The notes: generated from the sequence alone by a model not told the origin. Shown: positions 1 to 42,809, counted from the first letter of the whole stretch. The stretch is DNA of 63,976 nt, filler included, from Folioceros fuciformis (GCA_049999805.1; 23 parts of 23 records of this genome joined end to end with filler, not necessarily neighbours in it), one strand, 5' to 3'. Translations and numbers: made by a program.

Positions 1-466
1 CTCTTGGGGCGAAACCTGAGCTGGGGGCAGCTGCCAAGCTTGCTTTGTCACCAGTGGGCACGTGGTCATCCCAGGTTTTCAGAGGGCTGGCCTCCCCTCC
101 CATCGGTATCAGAATCTTTTTTTGTAGCGGGCTTTCGTGAAGGAGCCGGAACAGGAGAAAGCAGGATGGCGATGGTGAAGTCTGCCCTATAAAAGGAGGC
201 AGGGGCAGCAGGCGGAGGCAGCAAATATTCTCAATCCTTGAGCGTAGAGGAGCAGCGAAAGCGGCAGGCAGCGGAGAAGTCAGATTATTGGTGTCGCAGG
301 GTTGATTGAGGCTCAGAAAAAGCGAAGGGAGGAAGGGCCTGCCGTTGCAGACTATTTAGTGTGATGTTGCCGAGTTGGTAGGGCAAAGCTTTTGTGCGCT
401 GGAAGGTGAGAACCGGGAAGGAAGGTCGTGCGATTGGGACTTGTGTGCGATCTGCTCGAACGTGCT

Positions 467-3700: not shown

Positions 3701-5920
3701 CAACCCCACTTCCTGCCGCTGGATGCCAAGGGTTTGTCAAGTTTTAACCCGTGCGGCGCCGCAACAAAAGGTGGTGAGACAGCCAAACGCTCGCACACTC
3801 CTAATAACCATCTACGTCAAAGACTTGAGAGAGAGAGAGAGAACAAGAGAAAGAGAGAAAAGGAGGAGTAATAAAAAGGGTCTTATTTCATCAACAGGTC
3901 CAGTCCACAGCAGTACCTGCCTTTCCCACATGATGGTCCGATGCCACGAGCCTAGGGGCCCCGCCCATAACGTGTGTCGTTGTAACGGGACGGGATTCGC
4001 CATGGACGGTGTCAGAATCCATGCTTATCCGATGGCCCCGCCCCAGGCCCAGGCACAGGCCCGGGCCCCTGCTGTAGCGAATGTCATTTCATGTCCTGAC
4101 GGTTACGCCTCCTGACAGGGCATTGTCCGAGACGGGATACAAGAGACTGGGAGACGGAGAAGGAAGACCGACATGGCAGGCAGTCCCCGTTCACACTTAC
4201 ACACGGAACGGAACCTGATTTGCGAGCCCCGCCTGCCCGCGCTTCCTTCAACTTGGCAGTGCCACGCCACACTCTGCCCCAAATATGACAAAGCGCTTTT
4301 ATGGACAGAATCAGGCTGGCGAGGCCAAGGCTCGAGCGCGCGGCAGTCGGGATGCGTGCAGAGGCGCTCAGACCTCATCATTGTCTCTGCAAAACGTGGA
4401 GAAAGATGCACCGCGGCCAGGCTAGGGCAGGACTGGCCCTGGCCTGCCCCGCTGCTTCCTCAATGCTCAATGCTCAATGCTGCTGCCTTGCGTCTCCCCG
4501 AAGCACTCTTTCACGCCATGTTCCTGCATCATGACCGCTCCCTCCTGCTGTTGCCAGAGAGCCAGTAGCACAGCGGGCCACTGTCTCACTCGCTGGCTGC
4601 CTGGCCGCGGCAGCAGCAGCGGCAGCGGCAGCGGCTCTCAAATCCATGCAACAAAACAAAATGCAAGTGCAGTCCAAACTCCTCGGCGGCATCATCCTAG
4701 TGATACAGTGCTGCAACGGCACTCGTCCTTTCTCCCTCATCCGGGCCCCTCTCCTCTCCTCTCCTCGCCTGCTCCTGCTCCTGCTCCTGCTCCTGCACTG
4801 CATCATACGTACTGGAGTAAAATAATGACAGAACCGCGCAGGCACAGGCCAAGGTGCAGGACACTGCCATCCATGTCTCTCCTTCGCCATTGAGCTGCAT
4901 ACCATTCCAAATCAATTTGTACTGCACAAATCGCAGCTCAGCTCCCGTCCACTGGCTTCTGGCCATGGATACATACCCTGCACTGCACGACACAGATCGT
5001 ATCATATCAATTGCACCTCTGCCAATTGCAACGTCTTCGTCCCGCTTGGAATAGAGGATCGACGGAAGCACGCAGGCGCAGGCCAACCGGCTTTTCTGGC
5101 ACCACCTAGTCATGTGCCACATGTGGGACAGGCAAAAGGGAAAAGAAAACAAGAGCGGGCCAGGAGCGAGGAGAGCCAGGGAGGGCTGCTCACAGACAGC
5201 AACCGACATGCCGCGTTTTCTCTTTCTCTTGCAGTATCCGGCGGACCGCACACCACGAAGAAGCGCTAGCGCAACAAGGCACCGCACCTCACCTCCATCC
5301 TTCCCACCTCATCAAGTCCGCTAGGACAAGGAATCCCCTCAAACCAACGATGCCACCGGGTGCATGCGCCTCGGGAACGCAACGGAGGCAACAACGGGCG
5401 CGGCAACGGCAACGGCAATGCCAACGGAAACGGAAAACACAAAGACACAAGCAACCGCAATACGTGTACTGTTACTAGAGAGAGAGCGCCAGGGGGGAGG
5501 ACGGACCTGGGGAGGGAAGCTTCTGGACTAGACTGGATAAAAACCGTCATGGCAGGTAAGAAAGTGCATGGTCAGGGCCAGACAGCTATAAGGACAAGGA
5601 GCAAGAACATCATCGTCGTCACCATGCGCATGTCTGGAAGGGGGGAGAGAGAGAGGGCATCTTGCTTTACCTCATCTCTCTCAGCACACTTTCATCAGCG
5701 CAAACAGCGACTCCCACTTGACAACAACACACCCTGCTCATCAGATGGCACACACGGACATGCCAGATTTCAAAAACAGTATGTACATTTACATACATGG
5801 AATTCATTCGTACAGGATACACAGTACTAGTGTATGTGTCCAACCAACTTCAGCCTTCTCTTCCCCAATGACAATGGGTACAGGCTCTGTATAGCACTTC
5901 CACTTGCAGCGAGCCAGCAG

Positions 5921-5996
5921 GATGAAGATATAACTATAGGATGGACACATAACTGTAGACTGAAGATATAACTGCGGGATGAAGACATAACTGTAG
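5921..5996. repeat. 19-bp tandem repeat, 4 copies (GATGAAGAYATAACTRTAG-like), downstream of the ARF stop
   Basis: Units start at 5921, 5940, 5959 and 5978. Confidence 0.8.
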
Positions 5997-6146
5997 CATC
6001 ACTGATTGTCCAGGCCATGACCAGGTTGCAAGTATAACATATCGAATAGGTAATTAGACAAGGCAAAGGTGAAATATAGTTGCTGGTGAATGAAACTCTT
6101 GTTGAGGCTGTTTTGCTGGACTGGTCTCCCTCCATCCCTCTCCTCC

Positions 6147-7817
6147 CTATGATCCGCAGCTGGTGGCGTCGGGAAGAATGGTGAGGCGACGCACGGATTG
6201 CATGAAAATTCTGCACCCACAAGCAAGCATTGGTAGTGGTGTGAGGGGGAGTTGGGTATGTGGGTAGGTTGTGAAATAGGAAGAGACGCAGTTACTACCT
6301 GTAGGGCTCATAGCCGACTTGAAGAGTGGAGCCTTCCGAGTTACGATACACCAAGTTCTTCTGCAGTTCCACCTTGTCCATGCAGAACATGCTTGCTAAG
6401 CGGCCAAAAAGTTCGTCGTAGTTGCTGAAGATAGCCAGGTCCACGGTTCGACCTACCTCCTCGCTGTCTTTGAACACCTTGCAGTGCGAGAAAGAGTTGA
6501 AAAAGAACCTATCCGCCTTCTCCTTCAATGCTGGCAGGGTTTGATCCTTCATCCACTTGGGCCCGCCCGCAGCAGCAGCGGCAACAGCGGCATGTGAGTA
6601 GAGCCTGTGTAAGTGGTCAACCTCGTAGCCTCCCCCTCGAGCCTGCACCGAATCCCCTGATACGTTTTGAACTTCACCGGGACCGTTGGTGGAGAAGGAG
6701 TCATGCTGGTGCCGAGCGGCAGATGAACCGGTCTTGTCGGCCAGGTCTATTGCCTGCCCAAAGAGCAGAAACGGAGCCGTCTTGGATGAACCGTTAGTCA
6801 CCGGGGCTGCGGCCACCTGAGACACGGTACTCGCAGTCTTGAAGCCCCCAGGCCAGTCCTGCTGCTGCAACCCAGGGCTGCTTACCGAAGTATACAACGA
6901 CAGCCCGTGGCTCTGCACCACCACTCCACCACCACCAGCAGTAGCGGTGCCAGTTCCTGCACTAGCCCCACCTCTCTCCTGCTGACGATACACCTGGTCC
7001 AGAAGCATCCCAGCCGGAACTGGGACAGAGCCCTTCTTGGCACGCAAGGCTGGAAAGAGTTGCCCGTCGAACCGTTCTTGCCTGGCTTCCTGCATGCCTG
7101 CAGGGATATCTTCCACAAGACCCCACGGAGAGATGGGCCCTAGAGCCGCCGCCATGGACATGCCTTGCAGAGCATACTCCGAGTTTCGCGGATTCTTCTT
7201 GGGCAGAGCGAAGGGAGGAAGCTGCATGGGCAGGGTGGACACCAGGTCCACCTGCCAGGGGCTCACCCTGCTCACTCCCTGCAGCAAGTCCGGCTCGTCC
7301 CAAGTCACCTGTTCCACACACAGCCACAGGACGGGCAGGGCAGGGCAAGGCAAGTCAAGGCAGGAAGAATTCAGAAATGCGTCGTGAACAAATGCATCCC
7401 TGCAAATGATAGGTTCAAGCTCCCGCAGTGAAGCAAGAAGGAGGAAATAATAGCATTGACAGGAAAAGAGATAAAAAGAGAGGCGGGTAGCCACCTGCAG
7501 CACACGCCAAGGAGAATTGGGCCAAAAGTGAGGATCCGCCGGCTGCACTGCCGCAATGGTGCCCATGAACCAGCTGATCCTGGACGAATCCTCCGTCTCG
7601 AACGGCATCTTAAACCTCATCCCCGTGTACCAGGTCTGCTCCAACGCAGCCTTGACAGCCTTGGCCTTGACGCAGAATTCAGCCGTGCTGGCCCTGGGGT
7701 AATAGACGACCTCAAACGGATGCCCCGCCACAGCCAACGACGCCGCCTCGACCACGGACTTGGCGGTAACCCGGGCCCGGTTCCTGGCAAAGCTGCTAGC
7801 GCTGGTCGCTCTCCCGG
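6147..7817 (-). CDS. ARF: class C auxin response factor (ARF10/16/17-like), 3' part: ARF domain, middle region, PB1; exons 7817-7495, 7308-6299, 6210-6147
   Basis: SFARNRARVTAKSV, FEVVYYPRASTAEFCV, GMRFKMPFETEDSSRISWFMGT, LLFG motif, PB1 HCKVF..GRTVDL..EPYR/IFMQSVRRLTIL; GT-AG introns 7494-7309 and 6298-6211; 5' truncated at contig edge. Confidence 0.96.
7079..7099 (-). promoter_or_regulatory. miR160 target site, variant with a mismatch opposite miRNA nt 10
   Basis: Plus strand TGCCTGGCTTCCTGCATGCCT vs canonical miR160 UGCCUGGCUCCCUGUAUGCCA; at the expected position in the class C ARF middle region. Confidence 0.9.
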
Positions 7818-10039: not shown

Positions 10040-11150
10040 GTTTCATTGTGCATCCCGCTCAATTGTCCTGTCTAAAACTATGAGCACCTTGCATCACGAT
10101 TAAAAGAACGAAAAAGTTTCTTGCAGTTTTGGTCGAAACGAACAAAATCCTCGGTAGTTTCTTCACTTCTCATCAGTTGGGTCGTTACCCGGATGACTCG
10201 CGTTTGGCCCTTGACACGTCCCAAGCAACTTCCTCCTCCTTACATATCTCGATAACATGTATGGATATGTAAGGAGACATCAACTCGATATGTATCCTTG
10301 TACTAACTAAATATGCTACTAGATATACTAATGCATAACCTTACTTGGGAGTTTGCTTTTTGACATTCCCCCTCAAGCTCGTACTATTTTTAATATTCTA
10401 AGTAGTTCACAAAAATGGAGGATGTGCCGAATGTTAGGTTTATATTCATGCAACCTCTCATATGGTGTAGCACCATGAATCCCTGCTTTGGAAGTTTGAT
10501 TCAACACATATACCATAGTCATGACAACTTCTGCCCAATATGTATCAAGTAAGCATTTTTCATTTAGCATTGCCCTTGCTAATTCCATTAGCACACTATT
10601 TTTCCTCTCTGCAACACCGTTTTGTTGCAATGTATATCAACAAGTCAGTTGTCTTCGTATCCCATATTTCACAAGATACCTATCAAATTCATTTGAGATA
10701 TATTCTCTACTTCCATCTAATCAAAGACAAGAAACGGAGAAGCTAAATTCATTTTTAGCATGCTTCTTGAAGTTTCTAAATGCATTGAATACTTCATTCT
10801 TATGCTTGAGTATGTACAACCAAGTTTACCTATTGAAGTCATCCACAAATGAGACATACTAATGCGCTCCACCAAATGATTTGTTCGAGGATGGACCCAA
10901 CACATATGAATGTCTTAGCTGCACTAGTTTTGTGCTATTTTGCACATGTCGCATAAATAAAAATCTTATTTGGTTACCAAATTGACATGCAGGAAACACA
11001 TGTCCAAGATCAACATACTTGAATCTAGGCAATTCAAGCACTACACCTTTTTGTTGCATAGATTTCAGCTTCTATATGTTCACATGTCCAATCCTTTTAT
11101 GTCATATCTCGCCATCACGTATGGCACCTTCATCATTTGCAAACATGGCT
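10040..11150 (-). mobile_element. degenerate Ty1/copia relic: GAG-pre-integrase and integrase, then polypurine tract and 3' LTR start
   Basis: H-K-R-I-G-H pre-integrase remnant; QQNGVAERKN..LMELARAML..YWAEVV integrase with stops and frameshifts; GAGGGGGAA-TGTCA (PPT then TG) at about 10374-10361. Confidence 0.88.
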
Positions 11151-29056: not shown

Positions 29057-29156
29057 NNNNNNNNNNNNNNNNNNNNNNNNNNNNNNNNNNNNNNNNNNNN
29101 TTAATTAATTAANNNNNNNNNNNNNNNNNNNNNNNNNNNNNNNNNNNNNNNNNNNN

Positions 29157-30620
29157 CCTCCCCCACCCGGTCGTGTAGGTGGTCCTCCTCCACCCCCGCC
29201 TCCTCCGGGAGGCAAGGGACCTGGTGGCCCTCCTCCACCACCTGCAATGCCAGGCAGAGGCAGGGGTGCCCCACCTGGGCCGCCTGCTCCACCAACCCTC
29301 CCAGGAGGACGAGGCAGAGGAGCAGCTGTTGGTGAGGCCGCAGCTCCTCCCCCTCCTCTACCCAAGAAGGCTTCCTTGAAGCCTCTGCATTGGGTGAAAG
29401 TCACAAGAGCAGTCCAGGGTAGCTTGTGGGCGGAGAATCAGAAGCAGGAGGAGCAAGCAAAGGGTCCTGATTTCGATATGTCAGAACTGGAAAGTCTTTT
29501 CTCTAATGCAGTGGCTACCGTGTCTGAAAAGACACATGCACGGCGACCTTCTGGTGGAGCCAAGCCAGAGAAGGTGCATCTCATTGACATGAGGAGAGCT
29601 AACAACTGTGAAATTATGTTGACCAAAGTCAAGATGCCCTTACCTGACATAATTAATGCTGTTCTAAAGCTGGATGAAAGTTTGTTAGATGTCGATCAGC
29701 TGGAGAATCTCATCAAGTTCTGCCCCACCAAGGAGGAGAGTGATACGCTAAAAAATTTCAATGGTGAGAAGGGGACTTTAGGAAAGTGCGAGTTATTTTT
29801 CTTAGAGATGATGAGGGTACCTAGGATGGAGGCCAAGTTGAACGTGTTTTTGTTCAAGATCCAGTTTTCCTCTCAGATCAAAGAGCTGCGTGAAAGTTTA
29901 AGGGTTGTGAATGACGCCTCGAGGGAGGCCCGAGAGTCTCAACTGCTGCGGAGAGTAATGTCAACTATACTGTCCTTAGGGAATGCCTTGAATCAAGGAA
30001 CTGCTCGGGGGTCAGCGGTTGGGTTCAAGCTGGATAGCTTGCTGAAGCTTACAGACACTCGTGCTTCCAAGAACAGCAAAATGACTCTCATGCATTACCT
30101 GTGTAAGGTACTTGATGAGAAGATCCCAGAGTTACTCGAGTATCACAAGGATTTAGCACACCTAGAGAGTGCCACAAAAGTCCAGTTGAAGACTATGGCA
30201 GAGGAGATGCAAGCTGTCAGTAAAGGTTTGGAGAAGGTGGAGCAAGAGCTGACAGCATCGGAGAACGATGGGCAGGTATCTGCAGAGTTTAGGAAGGTTT
30301 TGAAGGAGTTTCTGAACACAGCAGAGGCAGAAGTGAGGTCACTTTCTTCGCTTTATGCAGAAGTGGGTAGGAATGCAGATGCACTGGCAAGGTATTTTGG
30401 TGAAGATCCAGCACGCTGTCCGTTTGAGCAAGTGATATCCATTTTGTTCAACTTTACTGTGATGTTCAAGAGAGCACTTGAGGAGAATCACAAGCAAATA
30501 GAGTTGGACAAGAAGAAAGCAGAGAAAGATGCGGAGAAAGAGAAGTTGAAGCAGTCTCATCCAGCTGTTGAGAACGAGCGTGTCAGAAACTCTCCTCTGA
30601 AAAGAACACAGGTGGCCTAG
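29157..30620 (+). CDS. class II formin, end of FH1 plus complete FH2, intronless
   Basis: Poly-Pro with GRGRG, LKPLHWVKVTRAVQGSLW, RRANNCEIMLTK, LGNALNQGTARGSAVGFKLDSLLKL, YFGEDPARCPFEQV. Confidence 0.97.
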   Translation, partial: PPPPGRVGGPPPPPPPPGGKGPGGPPPPPAMPGRGRGAPPGPPAPPTLPGGRGRGAAVGEAAAPPPPLPKKASLKPLHWVKVTRAVQGSLWAENQKQEEQAKGPDFDMSELESLFSNAVATVSEKTHARRPSGGAKPEKVHLIDMRRANNCEIMLTKVKMPLPDIINAVLKLDESLLDVDQLENLIKFCPTKEESDTLKNFNGEKGTLGKCELFFLEMMRVPRMEAKLNVFLFKIQFSSQIKELRESLRVVNDASREARESQLLRRVMSTILSLGNALNQGTARGSAVGFKLDSLLKLTDTRASKNSKMTLMHYLCKVLDEKIPELLEYHKDLAHLESATKVQLKTMAEEMQAVSKGLEKVEQELTASENDGQVSAEFRKVLKEFLNTAEAEVRSLSSLYAEVGRNADALARYFGEDPARCPFEQVISILFNFTVMFKRALEENHKQIELDKKKAEKDAEKEKLKQSHPAVENERVRNSPLKRTQVA

Positions 30621-30786
30621 TGTACTGTTATATACATTGCGCTNNNNNNNNNNNNNNNNNNNNNNNNNNNNNNNNNNNNNNNNNNNNTTAATTAATTAAN
30701 NNNNNNNNNNNNNNNNNNNNNNNNNNNNNNNNNNNNNNNNNNNGCTGCGGGGGCAGGAGCGCATCCCGGCCCTCGGTGCATGAGAA

Positions 30787-32147
30787 ATGTCGCTTTTCCG
30801 CAGGTTCTTTTACAGGAGGCCGCCAGACGGGCTCCTGGAGATTACTGAGCGGGTCTATGTCTTTGACTCGTGTTTCTCCACCGATGTGCTGGATGACGAC
30901 AGCTACAGGGTTTACATGCGCCAGATTGCCAACGAGCTGCACGATCAGTTCCCCAAGTCTTCGTTTCTTGTTTTTAATTTTAGGGAAGGGGAGAGGAAGA
31001 GCCAGCTCACGGAGATCTTGTCGCAGTATGAGATGACTGTCATGGACTATCCCAGGCAGTACGAGGGATGCCCTATTTTGTCCATGGAGATGATCCACCA
31101 CTTTCTGCGCTCCAGTGACAGCTGGTTGTCTCTGGAGGGCCATCAGAACATCGTGTTGATGCATTGCGAGAGGGGAGGATGGCCGGTGCTTGCTTTTATC
31201 CTTGCAGCCTTCTTGATCTATCGGAAGCTGCATACCGGGGAGCAGAAGACGCTGGACATGCTGCACAGGGAGGCTCCCAAGGGCCTTCTGCACCTCTTGT
31301 CTCCTCTTAACCCTGTGCCCTCGCAGCTCAGGTATCTGCAATATGTGGCCAGGAGGAGCATATCGGCGGAGTGGCCTCCTCCTGATCGGGCTCTCACTCT
31401 CGATTGCCTCATTTTTCGTGTGGTGCCTAGCTTTGATAATGAAGGGGGTTCCAGACCGGTGGTGCGTGTCTACGGCCGGGATGCTAGGGTTAAAGGTGGC
31501 CGTTCCACTCAGCTGCTCTTCTCCACCTTGAAGAGGGGCAAACCTGCTAGGCATTACAATCAGATTGATTGTGATGTCGTCAAGCTTGACCTGCAATGTG
31601 CAGTGCAGGGGGATGTTGTGTTGGAATGCATTCATATAGATATTGAGACAGATAGGGAGGAAATGATGTTCAGGGTGATGTTCAACACGGCCTTTATCCG
31701 CTCCAACATTCTTATCCTCAATCGCGATGACATAGATGTTTTGTGGAATGCCAAGGAGCGTTTCACCAAGGATTTTAGGGCAGAAGTGCTGTTTGGGGAG
31801 ATGGACTCTTTCCCTCCCCCTGTCGTACCTGTCGTTACTCTTGGGGGTGAAGAGAAGGGAGGACTGCCCATGGAAGCCTTTGCTAAAGTACAGGAGCTCT
31901 TTAGTAGTGGAGATTGGGTGGACGGACATGGAGATGCTGCTCTCAGGTTTTTGCAACACTTCTCTGCAGGACATTTTCAGGACCTGGAGAAGCTTCTGCC
32001 CGCAGAGACCAACGGCAAATTGACACCCAGGGCACGACCACCGCAGTCGGCGTTCTCGGTTTCTCCTCCACCCCCTGCACCAGCCTTTGCTCCCCCACCT
32101 TCACCACCACCTCCGCCCCCACGAATTGGGGCTGCACTCTCTCCTCC
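30787..32147 (+). CDS. class II formin N-terminus: PTEN-like and C2 domains plus start of FH1, intronless
   Basis: MSLFRRFFYRRPPDGLLEI, MDYPRQYEGCP, HCERGGWPVLAF, MMFRVMFNTAFIRSNIL, GGLPMEAFAKVQELFS. Confidence 0.97.
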
Positions 32148-32247
32148 NNNNNNNNNNNNNNNNNNNNNNNNNNNNNNNNNNNNNNNNNNNNTTAATTAAT
32201 TAANNNNNNNNNNNNNNNNNNNNNNNNNNNNNNNNNNNNNNNNNNNN

Positions 32248-36424: not shown

Positions 36425-39015
36425 TCAACAGCAGCTAGGGGTCCCGTGCAACCATCTCTCGGACATGCAGAGCATCTGTCTGGGACTTCGATAATGGGCA
36501 ATGATGTAACCATCAGCACAGCCTCCGTGCATGAAATTATCGTTGTTGATGAAGTCCACTTCGCTACGTGTTCGGTTCTGGAACTGTTGTATCCATATAC
36601 CCATGGCCACATCCTCGAGCTTGAATATCTGCCAAAATATTATTTCCGAAGTTAGCTAAAATCACAATCTCAAGGAAGCTTCCGGGAGGAGGACAAAGTG
36701 CGAAAAAAAGTTACCTGCAGTTCTCCACGCTGGTGGCTATGTACAACGTAAGAAGCGATGTCCTGGGAGATGATGTACCCAGGCCCGTGCGCCCACGGTG
36801 GATACACGGCGTCCGGAAACTCCTGGAAATGGAGGACGAGGTAGACATTTAGTTTCCCAGCGTGAATTGGGCAACGAGTAGCACCAGTCAGGAAGGAGAC
36901 GATTACGAACGAAGTCAATTCCATACCTCCTCACTGACGAACCACTTGTCGTCCTTGGTCCTATGGGGTGTGGCCTCGAATTCCATCCGGCCGTAGAGGA
37001 TGCTCTTTTGTGTCTTTGAAGAGATTACGGACGATAACACCTCATCAACGCGGACAAATGTATCATCATCCGTCTTCATTATGAAGTCTGCGTGAAGAAC
37101 CTTGGTCTGACCATGACACAACAACAGTTCACATTCAGACAAGGACAGACAAGGGCAGGTAAATACGTATTCTGAACCTTACAAACAAAGGAAAGCAAGA
37201 CATCAACTCACCCCAATTATGCACACAGCAAGAGTCTTGAGCGTTATCAGATCGTAGTAATCGACAAAGGGCATCAGCTGAACATCCCCATAGGTAGACG
37301 CTTCTATGAGGAGCTCCTTGTTCACTTGCTTGGTTTTGTGCTGCAGGGGCCAGACAGGATGTCAGGGCCATCTTACTTGACAGTACTTTGGTCACAGCTA
37401 CTGAAAGGCGTTTGCTGGTGAAAAACTGGCTGATGTGCTCACCAAGCCTACGAAGAAACGCACTGCCACCTTTCCGGATTTCACCTCTTTGGCTTGCATC
37501 CATGACCTCCGAATGGCCATTCTTCTGTCAAAATTGTTGCTAGTGGAGAAGACTCCAATTAACATGGTCAAGTTCGAATTTACAGGCAGTGGAGATGCTT
37601 TCAGAAACTCTAGATCAAAAATACGGTCGAGGTCCTCGACGTATGGCAGCCCATTCACCATCAAAGAAGTGGTTTGTATATCACCTTTAACTTCTACGCC
37701 ACTAACCAGCCAAGGTTCCAGATTCTGCAAGAGAACCCTGTCAGATGCTGACAATCCACAGCTACCTAGAACGGATGTCAAACATTTCCAAATTTGGGTG
37801 AGATCCAACCTGTTTGTATGCGTAAGAGGTAATATGCTTGCCGTTGACAGTCATATGAAACCCTTCCAAGCCCACTCTCAGTGTAGCAGCGAATGGGAAG
37901 CCCTCCACAAATGGAAACCAAACCCTTTCCTTCATTCCCCTTTTTGCGCCGGCCGGCCACCTGCCTTCTCCAGCTCTCCTTTCTGCAATCGGCTGCCCAA
38001 CTTGACCGATGCACTTACTCAGGCCATCCACTGTGAAAGAGAAGCAGGGCACATGCCGCGTAAGAACTCTGCAACACAAGACTAAGACAAACGACATAAC
38101 ATGCGTCATGACGAAAAAACTCCACAAAACCTCACCTGTTCTGTTATCCTCCTTTCCCTCGGGTGCCGGACACCGGACCTCTTCTTCCCAATCCTTCGCA
38201 GGCGTCCAGCTGTTGTGAACTATAACAGAGGTGTTGGTTGAAAGGTCCCCGTGAAGTCGAACATTGTAGTGCAGAATGATGGTAGCCTTCTCTCCCGGCA
38301 GTCTCTCGCCGAGAAGATTGATTCGGAAGTCACCCAATAATCCTCGGGGAATGCCAACAACTGTAATTGACGAGTCCACCACCAAACCGCAAGGTATGTC
38401 CAACACAAATTCTTCCCGTGACAGCTCAGTCGTATTCAACGCACTCACGGAGTAAGGGCACTGTTTTACTGCATCATCAGCCGAAGGAGCTGACGCTTCA
38501 GCTGCCTTCTTCTTTTCCTGTTTCACGTCGTCGAGGAGAGATTTTGTGGCCTCTATCCAGAGAGGCAGCCCTTCTTCCATAGCGTTCATAGACTGTGGTA
38601 AGAACTCAGCTCGGTCAAGGATAGGACTCCAATACGGCCATACTCCTAGCATGGCACTGCTCACAGAAATGTTAGCCTTGGACAGCGAGATAAACTTGTC
38701 ATTGAGCTCCATCACCTCCAGCAGGTCGCCTGGTGTCAGTCTCGGTTTCTGCCTCTCCGGAGGATAAGCCTTCTGAACAATCTCATCACTTTGCACGTTC
38801 AATGGAGAGTCATCAGCAGCCCCTTTACGCAAAGGTTGTTCCGCGTCCGAGGATGCGTGCGGTGAACATGCCCCTTCATCCGGCCAGGGGACAGCTCCCC
38901 CATGCCACAGGTTGAGGAAATCTCTGCTCTCCATGACCCCAGATGCCATCATCCAGAGGGCAAATACCAAGGCAATTGTCAGCACCCCTATCAGCTTGCT
39001 CCTGAGACTGGACAT
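36425..39015 (-). CDS. GALT1: GT31 beta-1,3-galactosyltransferase with galectin domain (GALT1-like)
   Basis: N-terminal [83 protein letters not shown]. Confidence 0.92.
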
Positions 39016-40597
39016 GGTTACGCCTTAAACTGCAGACAGCACCAGAGTCCATATACTCAGCAATGAGCCAAATCTCTCATCTCCACTCGTCCGGCCCTTC
39101 CTCAAATCCTCACCGACCACAATGGGAGGAAGCTATCCCAATCCAAACTCGACCCCTGCAGCTACACCAGCCTTCCTATGTTCCAAAACCAATCCCACGT
39201 TCCTGAAAGCAGCTCATATCGCCACTCTGCATCCATTTCCAACATACGTCCGCTCAGATCAGGCCACCGAGGCACCGCAACCAGCTTCCAGATGCCGCAC
39301 CGATCTGAGACACTCTAGCCTGGCTTCATATTCCCTTAAGTTCCCTCGCTGCTCTCTGACATAGAACCGAGTCAATCCCGTATCACACGTGGTCTACACA
39401 CGGAAACATTCCACTCAGAACCTCCCTCCATCCAGGGGCGACAACAGCCATCGCCTAACGGGGCCGGCATTATCACCGCTCCAAACCCGCTGCAATTCCT
39501 GCAGATCCGATCGCCAAACCTGCTGCAAAACCGCACACCTCAGCCTCGAAAACAAATTCCACAGCTCCGTATCACGGCACCCGGCCTCACAACGGGGGAA
39601 GCGCACATGGAATTCCCGTCACAGTCAACCTCATCCCGTCTCCATCTCCAGTACAGCGGCGACTCAAGTCACGAGGTGAAAGGACACCGAATTGGCAGCA
39701 GATGCCGCCGGCTTGCCGCAGCCTGAACACGGATCGGGCTTCCATACGCGTTAGGAGCTGCACGGCAGGATTAGTGCTGGGGCAATGAGCTAGTGGTCGT
39801 CTCCAAACATGAGACTGTTGAAGCGTCCTCGCTCTCGGGAGCTGAAGGCCGCCTCCGCCCGCCTCGGTAATGCCTGGGCAGGTGTGNNNNNNNNNNNNNN
39901 NNNNNNNNNNNNNNNNNNNNNNNNNNNNNNTTAATTAATTAANNNNNNNNNNNNNNNNNNNNNNNNNNNNNNNNNNNNNNNNNNNNGGGGGGAGGCCCAC
40001 GCTGATGAGAGGCAACACAGGATTGACAGCCACGGGTCCCGGGACAGCCGCCCACGCGGTTGCTTCACGAGACCACGCTCCAACCCAAGTACACAACATA
40101 GAGCAGTTTCGCGGACACAGTCCCGCACCGCCGCAGTCGCGGTCCCTCGCGCAGTCCGCTGCTCGGTTTGAATTCCTGCCGTTTGCCCATGCCGCCGCCA
40201 ACTGCCGGTGTCCGCCACGTCACGTGAGCTTTCCCCAGGCCAGCAGCGGCCCGTACGCGCTCGCGCCTACCGGGAGCGGGCCCCACGCGGTTTGGGCTTT
40301 TCCGCTGAGCATACACATTGGACCAGGTGGAGGACACATGTGCACCAGTGACGTGCGCGGTAGCAGCCGGGGTCCGCGGAGGACGGGGGAAGCCGGACAG
40401 TCGGATGAGCCGGCTTTCACCCTTGTGTGCTGTTGGGAAAGGGTCCGAACGGGAGAGAGAGGAAGCTACATATGTACAAACCACGCACAGCTGGTCATGT
40501 CCATGTCCATCCACACACGGATGCAAGGTGATGAGAGCTATACGATACTGGGACACGCAACATGCCTCGGGGATAGGATGGGGAAGAAGGCGTGGCG

Positions 40598-42809
40598 TCA
40601 CCGTCTCATGAGGCGGGCTTGGATGGCCTTGAACTGTGCGTGGGACTGGGCGAGGCATTCCACGCTCTTGCGCACGCTGGTGCACATGCTTTCCAAGGGG
40701 AGGACGGAAAAGGGTTCTTCGATGAGCACTCCCACCTACACGACAAAGTACAGCACCGAGTTGGGTTGCGTACAGTACTGGGAACGGAAGGCAATGGAAG
40801 GAAAAGGAAGGGGAGGGAAGCGTGATTCACTGTGTCAATGACACATCTGGTTTATGGCAGCATAATGTAATACAGCTTGTAAAGTGACGAGAAGGAGAGG
40901 GGTGAGGGATGCCACCTCGTCGATGAAGAACAGGGCCGTGGAGCTGAGGAAGGTGGCGGGCACAACTGTCCATCCGCACTGATCCCACAGTGCCAGTGGG
41001 AGTACCACATGCCAAAACACCAAGAAGAGGGATGTCAACCTTGTGTAGGATACAGGGACAGGTGTACGAAAAATGCGCTCGCATGCCCCCAAGTTGTCAT
41101 GCAATTGTGTTACGTTGCCATCCTACAAGGACGGGGTGGTAGCTATGTAAGTGGGTGGTTAGGAGGCAGATGACAGACTGCGACCTGCAACAGATACTGT
41201 CCATTCTATCCAAATCCGACGCAACTAGTGTACTGTTAAACTGGTGCGAAAGGCAAACATGTGAGGGAGGGGAAGAGGAGGATGTTGTGCAGGGAGTGGG
41301 AGTTGGGGGGTTCGTACCCCTCCCTGCAGCTACCTGCACTCATGAACAACTGACCATTAAAGCTAACTTCATGTCGCTTAATTGGCAGCTTTGGATGAGT
41401 CCTGATACCATCTGCAGCACATGGTTTGGCCGGTGAGGGGATGCCAGCAACGAGGCCAACTCATCCTCGTCCAGCAGGTTCAGGAGCTCTTCCTCCAGCT
41501 TATCCCCTGGCAGCAGCTGGTGTTTCAGGCACACGGGGAACGCCACCTGCGGGCCATTCACAGGAGGTTGAGGGTTACGTAAGAGGCGTACGTGTGATAT
41601 TCCAGGGCTGGTACTCGGAGAAGAGAAGGCAGCAGTATAATTCTCATCATCACAAAGCTTGTTTATTTGCTTGCTTGCTCGCTGAGATGTGAGATGATGC
41701 GTTATACTGCAGCCCTGGAATCACAGGCTGCCCTTCCTTGTCAGACACTGTGGACTTTATGACATTGGGGGGAGGAGAAGGTGACCAGGTCTGACAATGT
41801 AATCCAGGAGGCGCTGAAGAGAGTCCTGGCGTTCCGCGTCGTTGATCCAAGACAGAGCCTGCCTCGCCAGATCTCTGCTCCTGTTGACATTGGAGCCCCA
41901 GGCTTTCCTTGCCTCATCAAACCTGCCGTAGCACGCGTTGGTCCGGAACACCAGCAGCAGCGCCAGCGCCGGGGCTGTGAACTGGAAGGGAAGGGCGGAG
42001 ATGTGCAGAACCGGGATCCAGGCGGGAACCACTGACACTGCGCAATTGAAGGCAGCCACCGCTGCGGCAATCAGTGTCAGGGCCAGCACCGGAGCTCTGA
42101 GAGAGAGCAACACCCTGGAGGAGGAGGCGCAGAAGAGGTAGCGGACATGGCGGCTGCTGCTCCTGTGCCTGCTCCACTCATCGTGATCGTAAACTGTCTG
42201 CAACGACGACTGCATCATGCGCTCTGCAACCGTCTTCTTCCTCCCGAACCCTTGCTTCTGTTCTGGAGGAACGATTGCAGCCCCGGCAGCGGGAACGTCC
42301 TTGTCCCAGAATGCATCCGACCCACATTCTTGCTCTGAATGCGGCTCCGACGAAACCGCACACCGATATTTCTTGGGCTTCGATCCCTTGCCGAGCTCTT
42401 GCGGGAAGGCCCGTTGCCACTCCTGGCTGGACTTGAAGAGGCCGGGGGCGTCCTCCAACTGCCGCTGGGGCCTCATCGGCCGGGTGTGGAATAATGGCGT
42501 TCCCAGTGCCATGTCCTCTGCAGTTCAATCCCACACAAGAACCGTGTTACCACCCACCGCAATGTACATCGTCGCCGTCGCAATTGAGACCGGAATCTCA
42601 CCATCGATGGCTTTCCCGGGCCGCCACGAGGCACTCAACCGCCGGGTCTTTCTCCTGAGAATGGGAATCACTGGCCACACCACAGGATCGTCTTTTCGTG
42701 GCAGTGTCATGGTCTCGGGACTCGGTGTCTCCCGCTCTGGAATGGCACCGGGATGCACAGCAGCCCTAATTCTCGGGGTTAGCATTCGACCACGACCAGA
42801 AGCTTCTTC
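40598..42809 (-). CDS. bestrophin-like (UPF0187; BST/VCCN) anion channel, multi-exon; true start may lie further upstream
   Basis: LALLLVFRTNACYGRFDEARKAWG, PHRPN, GACERIFRTPVPVSYTRLT, IDEVGVLIEEPF; in-frame upstream exon via intron about 42601-42518. Confidence 0.92.

Follow-up and report, generated by a model that had tools for sequence, protein, structure and literature searches.

The window analysed here is a stretch of 63,976 nt in which 23 short contigs are chained by 22 linkers of the form N44-TTAATTAATTAA-N44 (44 runs of N between 1996 and 60226); owing to this construction, the order and orientation of its pieces relative to each other carry no meaning. The assembly of the source genome is very fragmented. 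The contig at 2096-7817 holds the body of an ARF gene with a miR160 site, and we compared this gene with sequencing runs from the same and related organisms. X1 and X2 are DNA runs with the same organism label and are possibly the source of the assembly; the DNA depth is approximately 10. X3, which has the same organism label, comes from another sample and another study, is eight years older and is putatively RNA. X4 and X6 are runs of two related organisms (B and C), the orthologues of which are approximately 95% identical to the ARF gene.

The gene body lies on the minus strand. Its upstream exon (7495-7817), truncated by the contig end, encodes the ARF ancillary (dimerisation) domain (...FEVVYYPRASTAEFCVKA...SPWRVLQ), which was recognised by PF06507 over 7495-7815 (E 9.8e-22, 77.1 bits, cut-off 27). 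It is followed by a GT..AG intron of 186 nt (7309-7494), and the corresponding joint (7305>7492, cut +3) was found in two contigs of X3, two of X4 and three of X6 and in none of X1. The large exon (6299-7308) encodes the end of the ancillary domain, a variable middle region that contains the miR160 site, and the start of PB1. A last GT..AG intron of 88 nt (6211-6298; GTAGTA..GTGCAG), for which X3 has the joint 6210>6299, precedes the last coding exon (6147-6210). This exon, ...(R)IFMQSVRRLTILPDATSCGS plus a stop codon, completes PB1 and fits the homologue consensus R.F.K...RL.IL, and its terminus, ...EPYRIFMQSVRRLTILPDATSCGS-stop, agrees with the PB1 tail of the homologues. The 3' UTR extends at least over 5798-6146, and record 8 of X3 covers 5798-6213 with 0 other letters. 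The frame is open over all 464 codons on the contig (GC3 0.69). As a profile match, PB1 (AUX/IAA III-IV; PF02309) was weak, at E 0.0048 and 17.2 bits under a cut-off of 22.7; the gene model and its class C homologues share the pattern HCKVF...VGRTVDL...EPYR.F...RL.IL in the alignment. We also observed one X3 contig (record 9, depth 70.8) that spans 6184-6328 unspliced through the last intron. Retention of this intron would place a stop directly after ...EPYR, with loss of the final PB1 segment, and the contig may represent pre-mRNA or an isoform.

The B3 domain was found on neither ARF contig, and the contig with the ARF body begins after it. An ARF first coding exon is located at the end of the next contig (9780-9939, plus strand; alignment columns 164-215), on the strand opposite to the body, and may either supply the absent 5' end of this gene or belong to a paralogue. 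The preliminary description had called the gene a class C ARF, and the domain matches, the named best matches and the alignment all agree with this. The named best matches are all class C, comprising ARF10/16/18-type proteins of lycophytes, ferns, mosses and angiosperms as well as a class C protein of Marchantia; the grouping is drawn from these best named matches, and the tree described below was built without class A or B outgroups. In a search for closely matching proteins, none was identical or approximately 95% identical to the ARF, and a further search with residues 1-110 returned nothing.

The miR160-complementary site, AGGCAUGCAGGAAGCCAGGCA, occupies 7079-7099 on the minus strand. The plus strand there reads TGCCTGGCTTCCTGCATGCCT and the mRNA reads AGGCATGCAGGAAGCCAGGCA. 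The site is in frame and forms part of the peptide AGMQEARQ, which the minus-strand open frame encodes at 7101-7078, and by alignment its place is homologous to the (A/V)G(M/I)QGAR motif of class C ARFs. For pairing we used the consensus letters of Rfam RF00247 (MIR160) as the reference, in which nt 10 of the miRNA is C. Against this consensus the site has a C-A mismatch at nt 10 (position 7088), a U-G wobble at nt 15 and an A-A mismatch at nt 21; all of the remaining positions are Watson-Crick pairs, such that the site at the homologous position retains near-perfect complementarity, with 18 Watson-Crick pairs and one G:U. The predicted duplex has a dG of -38.4 kcal/mol, which is 85% of that of the perfect duplex, and an Allen-type score of 3.5. 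The slicing position itself, nt 10 and 11, is incompletely paired with the consensus letters and becomes fully paired only with a form that carries U at nt 10 (U10), such as the 21-mer of the metagenome locus L005 described below. The letter responsible is an A in the mRNA (T on the plus strand) at 7088, the second letter of a GAA (Glu) codon, which in homologues is GGN (Gly). When both strands were scanned for the 21-mer with up to three mismatches, the window contained this one occurrence, with 0.01 expected by chance, and no second miR160-like 21-mer; an Rfam scan of the window found no family, MIR160 included.

The site, its peptide and its three departures from full pairing had been noted in the preliminary description, and all were borne out by the sequence and by pairing with the Rfam consensus. 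A further statement, that the G:U at nt 15 is common, holds at the level of the peptide only: the codon at the wobble encodes Met (ATG) in all of the non-seed-plant homologues that we saw and mostly Ile in seed plants.

The same description had left room for the base at 7088 to be an assembly error. The X1 contig that covers 5473-7775 (record 4) matches the window with 0 other letters, and so does a contig of 1,545 nt from X3 (record 10, word depth 144), which covers 6299-7305 and 7492-7817 with the 186-nt intron spliced out. The 88-nt intron is missing from another X3 contig, and neither intron joint occurs in X1. As the spliced contig carries the A at 7088 in a second sample and a second study, both an assembly error and a difference between DNA and RNA are removed, and the suspicion of an error is refuted. 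That the letter nevertheless arose by faulty assembly or sequencing, or belongs to a decaying pseudogene copy, is scarcely credible: the fragmented assembly and the DNA depth of only about 10 would allow it, but 464 open codons, the spliced contig and the presence of Glu in a distant relative all speak against it. The ARF gene is genuine, transcribed and correctly spliced, and has a G-to-A change (Gly to Glu) opposite nt 10.

To place this change we turned to homologues. Gly occupied the motif position in 15 of 15 homologues in a first alignment. We then searched 143 fetched proteins for the motif G[MILV]Q.[AS]R; 69 were fragments without the region, and among the 74 carriers Gly was present in 72 and Glu in two. 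One of the two, P0019, is encoded on a public contig of 5.5 kb and is much closer to the ARF gene than any other relative found (E 5e-70). As Glu codons are GAR, P0019 must also carry an A opposite nt 10. The other is an ARF of Cuscuta epithymum (P0057), which reads GIQEARH; a Cuscuta europaea protein of the same cluster (P0144) also has Glu. The Cuscuta variant belongs to an angiosperm class C ARF on a long tree branch and arose independently, in a parasitic plant, which indicates that the protein tolerates Gly-to-Glu.

The tree comprised 23 rows, namely the ARF gene and 22 of the 143 fetched proteins (the named ones and five unnamed close matches); a partial model from Marchantia polymorpha (P0008), P0017, which is without the motif, and the remaining unnamed matches were left out. 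The ARF gene and P0019 formed a clade with 100/100 support, a stem of 0.43 and tips of 0.31 and 0.42 changes per column, separate from lycophytes, from ferns, from liverworts and mosses, and from angiosperms. Their divergence is similar to that between Selaginella and Diphasiastrum in the same tree. Glu is older than a deep split whether P0019 is a distant orthologue or an old paralogue, and the change is a trait of the lineage, not a private mutation. As for the identity of this deep land-plant branch, hornworts are our guess, being the obvious group with no member in the tree and one that short introns and a high GC3 would suit; none of the other results hinges on this guess.

The surroundings of the site have been kept over this split. 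The ARF gene and P0019 agree at all 13 residues of DIPAGMQEARQER; outside this stretch they agree in 47 of 157 columns of the middle region (30%), and an island of this kind is what miRNA sites typically form in sequence that is otherwise free to vary. The bases that fit miR160 include the third positions of the Gly, Gln, Glu and Ala codons and the choice of AGG for Arg; with the codon usage of the gene itself, precisely this complementary set would arise with a probability of approximately 0.007, or approximately 0.08 if wobbles count. A paralogue in the same organism (record 5 of X1, record 11 of X3) has 3 differences in the 48 nt around the site, against 21 in 120 letters and 29 in 161 for adjoining pieces of exon, and the site region is thus about three times less diverged between paralogues than adjacent exon sequence. 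The locus thus holds a variant, fixed in the lineage and under continuing constraint, of a miRNA site that ranks among the most conserved in plants. The conservation of the island could also come from binding of canonical miR160 without slicing, or from constraint at the protein level.

Several observations concern the number of copies. According to contigs of X1, X3, X4 and X6 over 7075-7653, the same organism expresses one paralogous C-ARF or more and the related organisms have two or three copies, and the flank of the paralogue downstream of the site reads differently. Contigs from organisms B and C stop at the borders of the site, at 7074-7078 and 7100-7102, and those of organism A run through it. 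Under assembler rules that we presume to apply, such ends can be read as a sign of several ARF copies with an identical site word; we did not count them as such, the overlaps of 27 and 25 nt being shorter than 30.

A retained and expressed change at the slicing base suggests either that the microRNA has changed too or that cutting has been replaced by a milder control. Our preferred reading, at a probability of roughly 0.4, is that miR160 of this lineage has U and not C at nt 10 and that the site still works. The path to this state would be short. A change of C10 to U in the miRNA would have been tolerated by canonical GGA sites as a G:U wobble; a subsequent G-to-A change in the target would have regained a perfect A:U pair at the slicing position, and AGO1 would then slice between 7088 and 7089, as it does in other land plants. 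The price of the compensatory double change would have been Gly-to-Glu in the ARF protein. Seen across the lineage, a deep branch of land plants, possibly the hornworts, would have rewritten the base pair at the slicing position, from C10 to U10 in the miRNA and from G to A in the targets by way of G:U, and we hold this version with the same tentative weight, short of even odds.

Public metagenome contigs were scanned for the complement of the site with either base at nt 15, which yielded five loci. We rejected four of these (L001-L004) as MIR160 genes; they are chance matches with neither ARF context nor an Rfam match. The fifth, L005, is a non-coding, plant-like contig of 1,617 nt with a truncated MIR160-like precursor at 1-59 (minus strand) that has U at nt 10. 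It aligned to positions 1-61 of the 90 of the RF00247 model with 35.2 bits (E 7.7e-5), below the gathering score of 48, and unlike the Rfam precursors it has no star arm, the contig ending before it. The aligned letters extend beyond the mature miRNA and include the loop-proximal CAC..GUAG.CCAA; the available piece, its 3' end cut by the contig end, formed no hairpin on its own (z 0.81). The 21-mer of L005 pairs with the site from nt 1 to 20, with the G:U at nt 15 as the sole wobble, and the predicted duplex has a dG of -42.9 kcal/mol as compared with -38.4 for C10. A U10 form is thus predicted to be chemically sufficient. L005 and the window had nothing in common beyond a 20-mer, and the locus would show only that the required variant arises in nature, with no shown link to the lineage of the ARF gene.

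To our knowledge, every isoform of miR160 has C at nt 10, which counts against the U10 reading. The paper on the Anthoceros angustus genome lists, in the part available, miR160 among the conserved miRNAs by comparison with miRBase (PMC7027989); a miRNA found in this way may be canonical, which would again count against a U10 form if the lineage is indeed that of the hornworts. Literature searches for miR160-site variants in hornworts and lycophytes brought up no main text that describes a Glu/A variant of the site or a U10 miR160, the main text of the Anthoceros genomes paper mentioned neither miRNA nor ARF, and a literature search with the U10 letters in DNA spelling returned only an unrelated human primer.

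The strongest competitor, in our judgement unlikely though to be taken seriously, is that canonical C10 miR160 binds the site, that the C:A mismatch weakens or blocks slicing, and that a milder control, by translational repression or slow cleavage, has been kept by selection. The C10 duplex, with 85% of the energy and a score of 3.5, lies within common prediction limits, and the conserved island would suit any mode of control that needs pairing. Conserved non-cleavable sites exist: the 5' miR390 site of TAS3 is likewise deeply conserved, has a central mismatch, cannot be cleaved and is kept by selection, although it differs in its miRNA, its AGO protein and its purpose, which is to set the phasing register. 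For several species, rule sets derived from degradomes permit nt 10 to be mismatched, according to the available part of one article (PMC7049721). The same article, summarising Liu et al. 2014 at second hand, reports that one mismatch, at nt 9 or 10, was enough to make miR164 sensors unresponsive (PMC7049721), which makes it less easy to see why a mismatched site would have been retained for so long; with control so weak, the keeping of all other pairings over a long time would be less expected. This result and the easy path through G:U are the reasons for which we rank a U10 miRNA above impaired slicing.

Less probable still is that the G-to-A change freed this ARF, or all of the C-ARFs of the lineage, from miR160, and that the motif persisted through a role in the protein or through slow drift. 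A central mismatch at the slicing position and the tolerance of Glu in the two Cuscuta species would fit such an escape, as would the viability of engineered miR160-resistant ARFs, which show gain-of-function phenotypes in the portions of the literature available. A survey of ferns and lycophytes did not, in its accessible part, detect miR160 in the small-RNA sets of four lycophytes (PMC5569507), so that a lineage could conceivably have lost miR160 or express it at a low level. Simple escape, however, predicts decay of the island, and the island is intact over a deep split amid 30% identity; all other bases of the site except for the nt 21 end still pair with miR160, synonymous ones included, and between paralogues the site region has diverged about threefold less. 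These observations, together with the Glu shared within the island, argue against simple escape and for a site that is read by miR160, and at the level of sequence they favour continued constraint on the RNA. Very improbable is a last alternative, a natural target mimic, in which the mRNA would serve mainly as a sponge that binds miR160 uncut and shields other C-ARF paralogues. Endogenous target mimics have a three-base bulge opposite nt 10-11 and are non-coding. As in the IPS1:miR399 mimics, the slicing position here is disturbed with strong pairing on both sides, the transcript is present, and there are paralogues in the same organism (records 5 and 11) to be shielded; but the disturbance is a single mismatch with no bulge in an intact coding mRNA with its domains preserved, and the closest relative keeps the same coding context. 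Of the three explanations offered in the preliminary description, simple escape is thus disfavoured by the shared island, a strict mimic is unsupported given the coding mRNA with no bulge, and the evidence leans towards a site read by miR160, by a U10 form or, with weak slicing, by the canonical one.

The ARF gene belongs to a well-described module. Its gene class, the place of the site and its frame ((A/V)G(M/I)Q.AR) are those of the miR160:class C ARF pairs of Arabidopsis (ARF10/16/17), Marchantia (MpARF3) and Physcomitrium (C-ARFs); it differs in having A and not G opposite nt 10 and Glu for Gly, a state shared by only 2 of the 74 other motif carriers. The available text of one study describes the miR160 site as almost invariant, with conserved flanks, in ARF10 and ARF17 homologues (10.1101/2022.09.07.507021), and accessible parts of two others treat the role of miR160 and MpARF3 in Marchantia (PMC9291395, PMC10721683). 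The engineered miR160-resistant alleles rmARF10 and mARF17 and the gain-of-function alleles of Mparf3 are, as far as the sources were available, also changes within the site that lower pairing with miR160. Those engineered resistant alleles carry several silent, man-made changes, whereas here a single natural and non-silent change is fixed in a lineage with the remainder of the site kept. The miR160:C-ARF module is a textbook example of a frozen miRNA-target pair, and a slicing base that was changed and then kept would be a natural experiment on the evolution of such pairs, with two possible outcomes: a compensatory change in the core of the miRNA, or long-term selection for a site that is sliced weakly or not at all. 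If the U10 reading is true, two compensating changes would have struck the core of one of the most invariant plant miRNAs, in a pair that is approximately 450 million years old. Either outcome would also bear on how the dosage of the auxin response is set in an early-diverging lineage of plants.

Open frames were also noticed on other contigs of the window. Two adjacent contigs, 29109-30617 and 30784-32196 (both plus strand), are almost wholly single intronless open frames, one with an FH2 domain (E 3.6e-119) and the other with a PTEN C2 domain (E 3.9e-38), and the pair resembles a class II formin; frames of 1.4-1.5 kb free of introns are unusual in genomic contigs. Long open frames at 37765-39024 and 41760-42524 (minus strand) matched a galactoside-binding lectin (E 5.4e-22) and a bestrophin-type domain (E 9.7e-30), respectively. 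An open frame at 10373-10636 (minus strand), in a contig that is richer in AT, resembles by eye part of the integrase of a copia-type retrotransposon.
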